From the IMG/VR virus record IMGVR_UViG_2671180631_000010: a stretch of DNA of 4,395 nt. One strand, written 5' to 3'. The translations under genes were made by a program, and so were the position numbers. Shown here piece after piece: positions 789 through 4,395 of this stretch (positions are counted from its first letter, which is position 1; each line of letters begins with the position of its first letter). The DNA comes from a virus (taxonomy: Duplodnaviria > Heunggongvirae > Uroviricota > Caudoviricetes). Below the pieces are notes generated by a model, which saw only the letters and a program-made list of their open reading frames with translations, did no database searches and was not told the origin of the DNA.

Positions 789-1229
789 ATGAAAAATATT
801 GCGACAGGCGGCGTTCTGGAACGCATCCGCCGACTGACCCCGCCACATGTAACCGCCCCATTCAGAACGGTAGCGGAGTGGCGCGAGTGGCAACTTGCTG
901 AAGGCCAGAAACGTAGCGAGGAGATCAACCGCCTGAATCGCCAGTTGCGGGTGGAAAAAATTCTGAATCGCTCAGGCATCCAGCCGTTGCACCGTAAATG
1001 CTCGTTTGCGAATTACCAGGTGCAGAACGACGGCCAGCGATACGCGTTAAGCCAGGCGAAATCCATCGCCGATGAACTGATGACCGGGTGTACAAATTTT
1101 GCGTTCAGCGGAAAACCTGGTACCGGGAAGAATCACTTAGCGGCAGCTATCGGGAATCGCCTGCTGAAAGACGGTCAGACAGTGATTGTGGTTACCGTGG
1201 CTGATGTTATGAGCGCCCTGCACGCCAGC
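789..1229 (+). CDS. DnaC-like replicative helicase loader (AAA+), 3' end lost in N block
   Basis: ATG 789. The N-terminus and the Walker A region (FSGKPGTGKNHLAAAIG) align with E. coli DnaC as recalled (SGIRPLH..CSF.NY, FSGKPGTGKNHLAAAI, ITVADIMSA). The frame runs into Ns at 1230; the track ORF end at 1343 is a read-through artifact. Walker B and the true stop are not visible. Confidence 0.85.
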
Positions 1230-1287
1230 NNNNNNNNNNNNNNNNNNNNNNNNNNNNNNNNNNNNNNNNNNNNNNNNNNNNNNNNNN
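1230..1287. other. 58-nt block of undetermined bases (N) inside the DnaC-like gene
   Basis: Seen directly. Confidence 1.
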
Positions 1288-1303
1288 AGTTTCAGGAGGA
1301 TTT

Positions 1304-1726
1304 ATGGCGAAACCTTTTACTCCCGAACAGCGGGAAGAACTGAAGACGCGAATTGTGGAACTCGTGCATCAGGACGGTCGGGTCACGATTCGGCAGTTGT
1401 CAGATGAAACAGGTATCAGTCGTGCGTCTGTCGGTCGCTTATGCATAGAACTGGTCGCAAGTGGTGATGTATATAATTCTGGCTACGGCTTATTCCCGTC
1501 TGAACAGGCTCGCAAGGACTGGCAAAGCGCCCGCAAAAAACTCTCGAGAGTAAAGGTGAGGAAACCGGTTGTTGTTGATCCGGACCTTATCTGGTCATTA
1601 CCTGACGGAGAAATACGCCGCTACGACAGGCGCCTGAATATAATCTGTCGCGAGTGCCGGAAGAGCGAAGCTATGCAGCGTGTACTGGCTTTCTATCAGG
1701 GTAATTTTCAGGAGGCGATACTGTGA
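1304..1726 (+). CDS. Winged-helix (HTH) DNA-binding protein, function unknown
   Basis: ATG 1304 preceded by AGGAGG at 1294-1299; 140 codons. The N-terminal ~60 aa (RVTIRQLSDETGISRASVGRLCIELVASGDV) has a winged-HTH pattern. Confidence 0.75.
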   Translation: MAKPFTPEQREELKTRIVELVHQDGRVTIRQLSDETGISRASVGRLCIELVASGDVYNSGYGLFPSEQARKDWQSARKKLSRVKVRKPVVVDPDLIWSLPDGEIRRYDRRLNIICRECRKSEAMQRVLAFYQGNFQEAIL

Positions 1727-2140
1727 ATGAAATTAGCTATCAGGCTTCAATTACCGCTGGCATTCGCATCAAAGGAGAGGAGCATGGAAATAAAACCAGA
1801 AGATGAGTTAAGCAATATCGTTTTATTTCCGGTAAAAGAGGATGACCCTCGTAATCAGGTTAATTTTCTTTATGAGCCATCGGAAAGACCATATTGCCAT
1901 CACGCCTCTGTACGGGTTGACGAAAAAGAGCGTCAGGTCCGCTGTAAAATCTGCGGTGCGGTTGTGGAGCCGTTTGACTGGATGCTCTCTGTGGCAAAAA
2001 GAGAAACCAGACTGGCAGATGATGTAAGGCTATTGCGCCAGGAGGAACAGGAAAGGCGGAGAAATATAGAAAAGCTGATACAGATTGAGCGTAACGCGAA
2101 AGCGCGGATACGCAGGGCGACAAAATCCAGAACTGAATAA
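1727..2140 (+). CDS. Zn-ribbon (C-H-H...C-x2-C) protein with basic coiled-coil C-terminus, function unknown
   Basis: ATG 1727 overlaps the upstream stop (TGAATG), indicating translational coupling, with AGGAGG at 1710-1715. An alternative, possibly better start is ATG 1784 with GGAGAGGAG at 1774-1782. Stop TAA 2138-2140. Motif YCHH...RCKICG. Confidence 0.7.
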   Translation: MKLAIRLQLPLAFASKERSMEIKPEDELSNIVLFPVKEDDPRNQVNFLYEPSERPYCHHASVRVDEKERQVRCKICGAVVEPFDWMLSVAKRETRLADDVRLLRQEEQERRRNIEKLIQIERNAKARIRRATKSRTE

Positions 2141-2167
2141 TTAAATTTAGCACTGTTAAAAATTTAA
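2141..2167. promoter_or_regulatory. AT-rich palindrome TTAAATTT-N11-AAATTTAA just after the stop codon; possible operator or protein-binding site
   Basis: Arms 2141-2148 and 2160-2167 are exact reverse complements. AT-only stem, so unlikely to be a stable terminator. Confidence 0.3.
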
Positions 2168-2287
2168 TCCTTAACCGGAGGGATTTCTGCACCCTCAAAT
2201 CATCAGGAGACCACCCGAAAGGGCGGGGAGCAGTCACACATCTGTTTCCGATAGCCCCGTTCTAATGCTACACTCTTTGATATTTTT

Positions 2288-2974
2288 ATGACCCCAATAA
2301 ACATATTTATGACAGTTGCTGATTTCAAACGGCCCAAATTGGAGCTCCCAAACGGGGCAAACAAACTACTACTGCACTCTTGCTGTGCTCCATGTTCCGG
2401 TGAGGTGATGGAGGCGCTTCAGGCCTCGGGAATCGACTACACCATCTTTTTCTACAACCCGAACATTCATCCTCAGAAAGAGTATTTAATTCGTAAGGAT
2501 GAGAATATTCGCTTTGCTGAACAACACGGCGTGCCGTTTATTGATGCTGATTACGACACAGACAACTGGTTTGAACGAGCCAAAGGAATGGAATGGGAGC
2601 CCGAACGAGGGATCCGTTGCACCATGTGTTTTGACATGCGTTTTGAGCGGACAGCGCTGTACGCCGCTGAAAATGGTTTCAGTGTGATCAGCAGTTCACT
2701 GGGCATTTCACGCTGGAAAAATATGCAGCAGGTTAACGACTGTGGGCGGCGAGCCGTCGCGCATTATCCGGGCATGGTGTACTGGGATTATAACTGGCGC
2801 AAGCAGGGCGGCTCGTCCCGTATGATTGAAATCAGCAAGCGCGAAAAATTCTATCAGCAGGAATATTGTGGCTGTGTGTATTCTCTGCGCGATACCAATC
2901 TACACCGCAAATCTCAGGGACGCCCTCTTATCAAAATTGGTCAACTCCACTACGGTAAAGAAGAGAAGGAGTGA
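2288..2974 (+). CDS. queH: QueH-like protein (DUF208, epoxyqueuosine reductase family)
   Basis: 228-codon ORF, stop TGA 2972-2974. Cys motifs HSCCAPCS near the N-terminus, CTMCF mid-protein and YCGCVYS near the C-terminus match the QueH/DUF208 signature as I recall it. Start uncertain (ATG 2288 or 2309); no Shine-Dalgarno before either. Confidence 0.75.
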
Positions 2975-2995
2975 TTTTATGGGGCACCTTTCTGA

Positions 2996-3025
2996 TTGAT
3001 TTCATATTGGCGAGGTAAGTAGAAT
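2996..3025 (+). promoter_or_regulatory. Candidate sigma70 promoter: -35 TTGATT (2996-3001), 18-nt spacer, -10 TAGAAT (3020-3025)
   Basis: Hexamers read directly. Nearly identical to the motif at 3518-3545, including a GACT just downstream of the -10. Points into the N block. Confidence 0.35.
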
Positions 3026-3043
3026 GACTGCGGGTGCTTGAGG

Positions 3044-3080
3044 CTATCTGCTTCAGGCATGAACACCAAAAGGCAGATAG
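3044..3080. repeat. Inverted repeat CTATCTGC-N21-GCAGATAG
   Basis: 8-bp perfect arms at 3044-3051 and 3073-3080. Would lie in the 5' leader of a transcript from the 2996-3025 promoter; no U-tract follows, so not a terminator. Confidence 0.3.
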
Positions 3081-3133
3081 AGAAAAGCCCCAGTTAACAT
3101 TACGCGTCCGGCAAGACGCTTAACATTAATCTG

Positions 3134-3430
3134 NNNNNNNNNNNNNNNNNNNNNNNNNNNNNNNNNNNNNNNNNNNNNNNNNNNNNNNNNNNNNNNNNNN
3201 NNNNNNNNNNNNNNNNNNNNNNNNNNNNNNNNNNNNNNNNNNNNNNNNNNNNNNNNNNNNNNNNNNNNNNNNNNNNNNNNNNNNNNNNNNNNNNNNNNNN
3301 NNNNNNNNNNNNNNNNNNNNNNNNNNNNNNNNNNNNNNNNNNNNNNNNNNNNNNNNNNNNNNNNNNNNNNNNNNNNNNNNNNNNNNNNNNNNNNNNNNNN
3401 NNNNNNNNNNNNNNNNNNNNNNNNNNNNNN
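3134..3430. other. 297-nt block of undetermined bases (N)
   Basis: Seen directly. Flanked by a promoter-like motif upstream and a stop codon plus terminator downstream. Confidence 1.
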
Positions 3431-3952: not shown

Positions 3953-4306
3953 ATGGCACATATACAACTGGTCAAACAAACCTCTTCCGGATTACTTCTC
4001 CCGGCGACGCCGGAGAGTTGCGATTTTCTGCATCAAATCAAAATAGGTGAGTGGATACACGCAGACTTTAAGCGTGTGTGTAACTACGCATTCCACAAGC
4101 GTTTTTTCAAACTCCTGCAACTGGGTTTCGATTACTGGACTCCGGTCGGTGGGGCGATCACGCCTCGCGAACGAAAACTGGTGTCCGGTTTCGTTGATTA
4201 CCTGTGTGAATCAGTAGGCCGGGAACATACGCCAGCTCTGAGCGAAGCCGCAGAGCAATTGAGGTGTACTGGCAATAGCGGACACTACCATTTGTTCTTT
4301 TTTTAA
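3953..4306 (+). CDS. Hypothetical protein, probably a lambdoid nin-region-type protein of unknown function; possibly truncated at a T7 run
   Basis: ATG 3953 preceded by GGAG at 3942-3945 (the track's TTG 3911 start is less likely). Stop TAA 4304-4306 lies at the end of a T7 run (4298-4304); the adjacent frame stays open to the window end. Confidence 0.6.
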   Translation: MAHIQLVKQTSSGLLLPATPESCDFLHQIKIGEWIHADFKRVCNYAFHKRFFKLLQLGFDYWTPVGGAITPRERKLVSGFVDYLCESVGREHTPALSEAAEQLRCTGNSGHYHLFFF

Positions 4307-4317
4307 GCAGCCATCTG

Positions 4318-4395
4318 ATGATATTTTTCCCTGAAGGCTGCCGGGGAGATATTCCCCAGACGAGAGTGACGACGCTGACGATTGTAGAAAATCTC
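4318..4395 (+). CDS. Partial ORF running off the window end (MIFFPEGCRGDIPQTRVTTL...); either a separate gene or the frameshifted continuation of 3953..4306
   Basis: Frame 1 is open from 4279 to the window end with ATG at 4318; no clear Shine-Dalgarno. Confidence 0.25.
   Translation, partial: MIFFPEGCRGDIPQTRVTTLTIVENL

Follow-up and report, generated by a model that had tools for sequence, protein, structure and literature searches.

A queH gene carried as cargo by lambdoid prophages of Escherichia coli and predicted to encode a cobalamin-independent epoxyqueuosine reductase

Introduction

Why should a phage carry a gene for the last step of a bacterial tRNA modification? The modification in question is queuosine (Q), whose last step in Escherichia coli needs vitamin B12 (cobalamin), a cofactor that E. 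coli is unable to make de novo. The question is raised by a stretch of viral DNA of 4,395 nucleotides (nt) (IMG/VR record IMGVR_UViG_2671180631_000010, Caudoviricetes), called here the window, in which an open reading frame (ORF) of 228 amino acids on the plus strand, found at 2288-2974 in the six-frame ORF list, carries the cysteine-rich motifs of the epoxyqueuosine reductase QueH, YCGCVYS among them. An earlier note made from the sequence alone had read this ORF as a QueH homolog in a prophage and had offered two roles for it, namely tuning host translation during phage growth or serving a 7-deazaguanine pathway that targets nucleic acid. Our analysis points elsewhere: the gene probably encodes a functional, cobalamin-independent QueH on a self-contained cassette that would have been captured from an enterobacterial chromosome and would be expressed by itself in the lysogen, where the enzyme would act in parallel with the reductase QueG and free Q from imported cobalamin.

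QueG is cobalamin-dependent (PMC4646009, PMC6461909). Epoxyqueuosine-tRNA (oQ-tRNA) is made in E. coli by Tgt and QueA, and QueH is a non-orthologous replacement of QueG for the conversion of oQ-tRNA to Q-tRNA (PMC5372724). Staphylococcus aureus has both reductases, and in that species a response of the two to the availability of cofactors has been discussed (PMC13443448). What stands out in the present case is the mobile context; the enzyme itself is ordinary, and genes of this kind are already named 'epoxyqueuosine reductase QueH' in RefSeq.

Identity of the QueH protein

The ORF matches the Pfam QueH profile (PF02677) along positions 1-174 of 175 with an E-value of 1.9e-65 and 220.6 bits, against a gathering cut-off of 23.5, which is a family match far beyond chance. 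We used Pfam for the identity of QueH because the NCBIfam search left the protein unmatched, although the annotation by the Prokaryotic Genome Annotation Pipeline (PGAP) names the gene queH. Residues 27-203 of the window protein also match Thermotoga maritima QueH (Protein Data Bank (PDB) entry 7lc5 and relatives) by sequence, with an E-value of 5e-22. An AlphaFold2 (AF2) model built on 19 sequences reached moderate confidence (predicted local distance difference test, pLDDT, 72.5; predicted template-modelling score, pTM, 0.73), and its top five fold matches in the PDB are all QueH entries (E-values of 3e-10 to 4e-9, template-modelling scores of 0.76-0.78 normalised to target length), with PP-loop folds of the TtuA/LarE type ranking well below them. 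Pfam profile, ligand alignment and fold all agree with the cysteine-rich QueH signature and the motifs described in the earlier note, and they strongly support an assignment of the ORF as an intact, canonical QueH enzyme.

Numbered on the 221-residue form of the protein that is argued for below, the residues C25, C26, C29, C104, C107, C187 and C189 line up with the T. maritima motifs and do not vary across 19 relatives, so that all seven ligand positions are kept (Table 1). The roles of the individual Cys and Asp residues as ligands are presumed, in line with the titles of mutant PDB entries, among which are C9S and D13N forms of T. maritima QueH. The single ligand difference is C29 of the window protein, which is Asp13 in T. 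maritima. CCxPC is found in 109 of 150 representatives drawn from 50%-identity clusters (109 of the 113 that contain the motif) and CCAPD in 3, so that the form seen in the window protein is that of the family's majority.

In the PHROGs collection the gene belongs to phrog_3217, a family labelled 'unknown function'. Its profile of 188 positions begins at residue 34 of the protein encoded by 2309-2974 and does not contain the N-terminal 33 residues with the CCAPC motif; an internal Met therefore seems to have been taken as the start of the phage and prophage entries behind the profile.

Prophage context and prevalence in E. coli

Across 1288-3133, the window differs at 3 of 1846 nt (99.8% identity) from a prophage (locus L001) integrated beside ybhA in E. 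coli FDAARGOS_944. This prophage starts with int, xis, gam, recE, rha, cI/cro, ydaT, an O-like gene, ydaV, DUF977, a small hypothetical gene, queH and hokD, and continues after hokD with a Rem-like gene, DUF1367, DUF1364, DUF1133, four tRNA genes, and lysis, terminase and head/tail genes; the nin/Q region lies between hokD and the lysis genes. The carrier is a Rac/Qin-like lambdoid prophage in which queH occupies a variable cargo site after DUF977 and before hok/sok. As the earlier note had it, the gene lies directly 3' of a phage replication module, here made up of an O/YdaU-like gene, the DnaC-like ydaV and the helix-turn-helix (HTH) gene DUF977. The four tRNA genes of the FDAARGOS_944 prophage (L001 23423-23733) lie downstream of a Q-like antiterminator region and have the anticodons CAT, TCT, TGT and TCC; the first is called Met by ARAGORN and Ile by RefSeq, presumably read in the latter as a lysidine-modified tRNA.

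We found queH DNA in 995 of 5426 complete E. coli genomes (~18%), at 1014 chromosomal places with scattered coordinates and at 3 places on plasmids, and at least 80% of the gene is present in 985 of the 995. The B12-dependent queG is in all 5426. The DUF977-queH arrangement (at least 80% of a query running from DUF977 through the spacer to queH) occurs in 958 of the queH-positive genomes, and the queH-sok junction in the form seen in the window occurs in 851 genomes. DUF977 itself occupies 6146 places in 4046 genomes, ~5000 of these places being without queH; set against the 958 genomes with both, this makes queH an optional cargo of about one-sixth of DUF977-bearing sites.

A sample of 87 loci (five RefSeq genomes, phage HannyBb, 80 IMG/VR contigs and Escherichia albertii) has the same order throughout: in 87 of 87 the replication module is followed by DUF977, ~195 nt, queH and then a variable downstream neighbour, which is hokD after ~240 nt, a Dcm + NgoMIV restriction-modification pair, a KwaB-like pair and then hokD, or the nin region. 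The slot 3' of queH holds the KwaB-like pair in one E. coli prophage and the Dcm + NgoMIV pair in O157:H7 Z1768 (L003 5896-7535; L004 5872-7882). HannyBb, a lambdoid phage whose protein has 96.5% amino acid identity and is annotated 'hypothetical protein', is the only isolated phage in GenBank with the gene; the remaining 'phage' records with QueH homologs, either metagenome fragments without annotation or very large records bearing a prophage label, were left uncounted.

The immediate upstream neighbours differ in standing. DUF977 is the constant one but belongs to the prophage backbone, and the Zn-ribbon-like ORF, which separates DUF977 from queH in only 12 of the 80 queH-carrying viral contigs, is a second variable insert and not a partner of queH. 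The linkage to both genes that the earlier note had proposed to look for among close homologs thus holds for the first (958 of 995 genomes), though as backbone, and fails for the second. Nor do the two form the coupled HTH/Zn-ribbon pair described there: the most likely start of the Zn-ribbon ORF is 1784, behind AGGAG, as in the PGAP annotation and the phrog_1621 alignment, which leaves its translation uncoupled from that of the DUF977 gene.

Phage growth and DNA modification as alternative roles

Could queH serve the lytic cycle, transcribed with the early-right operon and adjusting the Q status of host tRNA in favour of phage translation? It points the same way as the early-right genes, with no predicted terminator separating it from the genes upstream, and HannyBb, a plaque-isolated phage, has the gene. 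We nevertheless consider this role unlikely. The NAU fraction of Asn, Asp, His and Tyr codons in 40 prophage genes (0.54) does not differ from that in a small set of 15 host genes (0.57; p=0.2), the four prophage tRNAs include no GUN anticodon and hence no Q substrate, the same cassette and promoter motif are found on plasmids and chromosomes, and only ~16% of DUF977-bearing prophage sites have queH. To our knowledge, there is also no decoding difference between oQ and Q. The tuning of translation during phage growth that had been suggested for the gene is thus reflected neither in the prophage tRNAs nor in its codon use.

Phages do borrow genes of the Q pathway for DNA modification, and by that precedent QueH might act in a 7-deazaguanine pathway modifying phage or host DNA; a phage-borne enzyme of Q-specific tailoring, however, was absent from a 2019 survey of 182 viruses with 7-deazaguanine genes, in which no QueA, QueG or QueH was present (PMC6884629). 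The 52 annotated features in 32 kb of the near-identical prophage (L001 8659-40993) include no DpdA/TGT-like gene, folE, queD, queE or queC, and searches of the window ORFs against Pfam, NCBIfam and PHROGs gave no match to DpdA/TGT-like or preQ0-synthesis families. We also know of no DNA base of the epoxyqueuosine type. A role in DNA modification, the second of the two suggested earlier, is accordingly close to negligible in our estimate.

Selection on queH

The 87 prophage copies comprise 21 nucleotide alleles and 8 proteins. Relative to the window allele, synonymous divergence (dS) reaches 0.18, nonsynonymous divergence (dN) is at most 0.01 and dN/dS is 0.01-0.05, with the ORF intact in 87 of 87 copies. 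In the window itself, queH is untouched although the prophage looks decayed (IS600 in DUF1367, an apparently split O-like gene). Judged by these ratios, queH is under purifying selection. Redundancy with the core queG and patchy presence would suit a neutral hitch-hiker without current function, an explanation that we regard as very unlikely in view of the dN/dS values, the intact ORFs, the conserved promoter motif and the 985 of 995 matching genomes that hold most of the gene.

Start codon, leader and putative promoter

The true start of queH is most likely the ATG at 2309, which gives a protein of 221 residues. PGAP annotates this start in the near-identical FDAARGOS_944; E. coli A10 has ATT at 2288 and an in-frame TAA after it, ATT likewise stands at this position in the plasmid copies L176 and L178, and the chromosomal homologs can be aligned only from 2309 onward. 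By direct reading of 2270-2308, a Shine-Dalgarno sequence is absent for both candidate starts, which bears out the earlier remark that the gene has none. The predicted leader and start region appear to be unstructured, with 2281-2350 folding no better than shuffled sequence (z=+0.91), and no riboswitch was found upstream: scanned by E-value against Rfam, the entire window gave only sok, with no preQ1 and no cobalamin riboswitch.

Several observations single out a short element upstream of this start. ATGCTACAC is unchanged in 10 of 10 distinct upstream variants among the 87 prophage copies. TGcTACA(C/A)T stands at equal distance from chromosomal queH in Scandinavium, Kluyvera and Enterobacter, where the remaining upstream DNA cannot be aligned, and the extended -10 element is found in the plasmid queH copies as well. 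Of 80 species loci, 18 have TGnTAnnnT at 30-50 nt before the start, compared with a background of ~1%. The element at 2266-2274 has the signature of an extended -10 sigma-70 promoter and may serve queH as such, in which case it would predict a transcript start near 2281 and a 28-nt leader. Homology between carriers begins ~50-65 nt before the ATG and stops ~10 nt past the stop codon (A10, HannyBb and plasmid copies), so that the shared segment takes in this element, the leader and the gene (Table 1).

Chromosomal and plasmid relatives

The closest QueH proteins outside Escherichia are those of Scandinavium (92% amino acid identity), Kluyvera (91%) and Enterobacter (89-90%), whose genes have neighbours encoding a short-chain dehydrogenase/reductase (SDR), a metallo-beta-lactamase-fold protein, DeoR, GH28, dihydrodipicolinate synthase (DHDPS) and a hydrolase. 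QueH of Providencia, Photorhabdus, Erwinia and Ewingella (80-86%) is encoded in four further unrelated chromosomal neighbourhoods, and prophage markers are present in 0 of 79 non-Escherichia species loci. Among species representatives (L095-L174), the QueH proteins of Enterobacterales share 75-92% identity with those of Pseudomonas, Stenotrophomonas, Sphingomonas and Neisseriaceae, whereas proteobacterial QueH is only ~30-50% identical to that of Firmicutes and Thermotoga, and the neighbourhood differs in every genus examined. Identity of 75-92% within Proteobacteria points to extreme constraint or to recent horizontal spread.

In PLSDB, 233 plasmids have a homolog, 99 of them in Klebsiella at ~90-93%. 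The three plasmid contexts examined are IncF, with insertion sequence (IS) elements, fec genes or a ThiF/MPN/NACHT/dGTPase island as neighbours; the island lies on a Klebsiella IncFIA/IncR plasmid (L177 1-9119), with queH amid the ThiF, MPN, NACHT and dGTPase genes. To judge from its carriers, queH is a widely mobile single-gene unit for which the prophage is one of several vehicles. The earlier note had held that close homologs confined to chromosomal housekeeping contexts would argue against a phage-specific role. The closest relatives outside Escherichia are indeed chromosomal, while related copies lie on plasmids, and homologs in both ordinary chromosomal contexts and plasmids argue for generic mobile cargo and not for a phage-specific function.

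The company that queH keeps at some of these sites brings conflict to mind. In keeping with the recurrence of the gene among hok/sok, restriction-modification, Kiwa-like and NACHT/dGTPase genes, a mobile queH might be kept for its effect on conflict, with the oQ-versus-Q anticodon state affecting, for instance, resistance to a toxin that targets tRNA, the exclusion of superinfecting phages, or survival after loss of BtuB, which is the receptor for B12 as well as for phage and colicin; we see this as quite improbable. In the version in which anticodon modification by QueH alters sensitivity to a tRNA-targeting toxin or a superinfecting phage in a phage-host or bacteriocin conflict, it draws on the hok/sok locus, the Dcm + NgoMIV pair and the KwaB-like pair at the cargo site and on the one Klebsiella plasmid copy amid ThiF/MPN, NACHT and dGTPase genes. 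We judge that version highly improbable: PADLOC gave no family match for QueH, for the Zn-ribbon ORF or for the Rem-like ORF, no mechanism is known, and the association is with a general cargo hotspot, with other copies adjoining iron-uptake genes, IS elements and plain metabolic genes.

Proposed function

As we picture it, the ORF product would be an iron- and [4Fe-4S]-dependent, cobalamin-independent tRNA epoxyqueuosine(34) reductase. Its one-gene cassette would consist of a native promoter, a leader of ~28 nt and the ORF, taken up from an enterobacterial chromosome and seated between the replication module (DUF977) and the hok/sok locus and nin/Q region of Rac/Qin-like lambdoid prophages. 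In a lysogen, the cassette's own promoter would drive expression of QueH, whose substrate for reduction would be the epoxyqueuosine placed on tRNA-Asp, -Asn, -His and -Tyr by Tgt and QueA of the host. The enzyme would run in parallel with the core B12-dependent QueG, and the benefit to the cell would be Q formation freed from imported cobalamin.

Several points weigh against this proposal. A strict sigma-70 consensus scan of 2000-3133 gave nothing upstream of queH on the plus strand, which leaves the case for a promoter to conservation, and no intrinsic-terminator-like site was found after queH in the same interval; queH transcript could stem mainly from read-through out of the phage early-right operon. 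The IMG/VR part of the 87 sampled loci is viral by construction, and repeated capture of genes from chromosomes, and not evolution inside prophages, could account for part of the synonymous divergence. Finally, deletion of queG had no growth effect in one described condition (PMC11841063), which puts the fitness value of Q over oQ in doubt.

About one-fifth of complete E. coli genomes thus have on a prophage a predicted B12-independent enzyme for the last Q step, and many Klebsiella plasmids have a close relative. If QueH is active, lysogeny or plasmid carriage would alter host tRNA modification when B12 is scarce, and the gene would also provide an instance of Q-specific tailoring by an enzyme that a phage carries. 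A full-text literature search found nothing on prophage- or plasmid-borne QueH, with the reservation that the primary QueH papers might mention E. coli prophage copies. As a mobile element carrying a tRNA-modification gene, the locus is a tidy example and not a radical one.

Other features of the window

The features of the window are collected in Table 1. Besides these, window ORFs match the replication-initiator fragments phrog_2509 and phrog_6451 and DUF1367. The O/YdaU-like replication-initiator gene (80-782) appears to be split into an ORF at 80-343, which corresponds to the N-terminal part of phrog_2509, and one at 513-782, which corresponds to the C-terminal part of that family; the halves are in different reading frames with stops between them, and the gene could be a frameshifted pseudogene or the product of an assembly error. 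Left of ~448 the window diverges from the FDAARGOS_944 prophage, which indicates a mosaic junction. At the other end, colinearity with that prophage stops at 4260, where TGAGGTGTACTGGC... starts: the end of an IS600 element (IS3 family) is inserted in the DUF1367 gene (window 4260-4395), the reverse strand of this segment encodes the transposase C-terminus EIFYNRQRRHSRLGNISPAAFREKYHQMAA up to its stop codon, and the DUF1367 ORF is shortened to 131 amino acids from 199.

Two runs of N, at 1230-1287 and 3134-3430 (58 and 297 N), correspond to 304 and 277 nt in the near-identical prophage and cover the 3' portion of ydaV and all of the hokD ORF. The runs do not preserve length, and coordinates across them are therefore unusable for distances. 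The hok ORF lies under the second run, with hokD annotated at the matching place in the FDAARGOS_944 prophage, and the sok score falls just below the gathering score of 59 because the run cuts the locus off. A promoter-like site (TTGATT, 18 nt, TAGAAT) is present at 2996-3025, near the start of hok/sok. Base composition shows no step around queH, with a GC content of 0.47-0.51 in the gene and 0.43-0.59 in the flanks.

Table 1. Positions of queH, its motifs and flanking features in the window
Feature	Positions	Strand	Basis and remarks
YdaV, DnaC-like helicase-loader gene	789..1289	+	NCBIfam PRK12377, E=9e-87; annotated ydaV in L001; broken by N run 1230-1287
DUF977 winged-helix gene, last of the replication module	1304..1726	+	Pfam DUF977, E=1e-33; phrog_142 'Ren-like exclusion protein'
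Small ORF, possible Zn ribbon (one Cys/His pair + CxxC)	1784..2140	+	Weak, sub-threshold TFIIB Zn-ribbon match; phrog_1621, unknown function
Shared queH cassette, approximate extent	2238..2985	+	Homologous segment between different prophage and plasmid carriers
Putative extended -10, TGcTACACT, 34 nt before the ATG	2266..2274	+	Conservation; weak -35 TTCCGA at 2246-2251
Predicted AU-rich 5' leader without Shine-Dalgarno, ~28 nt	2281..2308	+	Direct reading; transcription start inferred
queH coding sequence, 221 amino acids + stop	2309..2974	+	Pfam, PDB 7lc5, start evidence, intact copies; mechanical ORF begins 21 nt earlier, at 2288
HSCCAPC motif, C25, C26, C29	2375..2395	+	Alignments; correspond to T. 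maritima QueH C9, C10, D13
CTMC motif, C104, C107	2618..2629	+	Invariant; aligns with T. maritima CERC
CGC motif, C187, C189	2867..2875	+	Invariant; aligns with T. maritima YCGC
hok/sok type I toxin-antitoxin locus, start	3032..3132, continuing under N run	+	Rfam sok, E=1e-11, 58.7 bits (gathering score 59); ~60 nt past the queH stop

Comparison with known systems

QueG (E. coli yjeS) carries out the same conversion of oQ-tRNA to Q-tRNA (PMC5372724, PMC4646009) and is co-resident with the prophage gene, but it is a core chromosomal gene whose product is not homologous to QueH and requires cobalamin and two [4Fe-4S] clusters. The phage 7-deazaguanine clusters of phages such as 9g and CAjan (DpdA with FolE, QueD, QueE and QueC) likewise are phage-borne queuosine-pathway genes (PMC6884629); they comprise early pathway steps and a DNA transglycosylase, whereas here only the last, tRNA-specific step is present and DpdA is not. 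With T. maritima QueH (7lc5, 7lc7, 9deu) the window protein shares the Pfam family, the CCxP, CxxC and CxC ligand motifs and the fold, its AF2 model superposing with template-modelling scores of 0.77-0.78 normalised to target length, at a sequence identity of ~30-33%; apart from having Cys29 in place of Asp13, it is longer by ~16 residues at the N-terminus and 20 at the C-terminus.

Nearer to the window are the queH genes on IncF plasmids of Klebsiella and Salmonella, which encode proteins of 90-97% amino acid identity and are also single-gene cargo; two of the three examined (L176 and L178) have the common upstream module TTCCCGATAG...TGATGCTACACT...ATTT-ATG. Their carrier differs, being a conjugative or mobilizable plasmid, and so do their neighbours, which are IS elements, fec genes or the NACHT/dGTPase island. 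The chromosomal QueH proteins of Enterobacterales, at 80-92% identity, have the same length, their genes are without a Shine-Dalgarno sequence, and the closest of them share the extended -10 element ~34 nt before the ATG; they stand alone among metabolic and housekeeping genes, in neighbourhoods that are specific to the genus and free of phage markers, whereas the copy in the window is prophage cargo.

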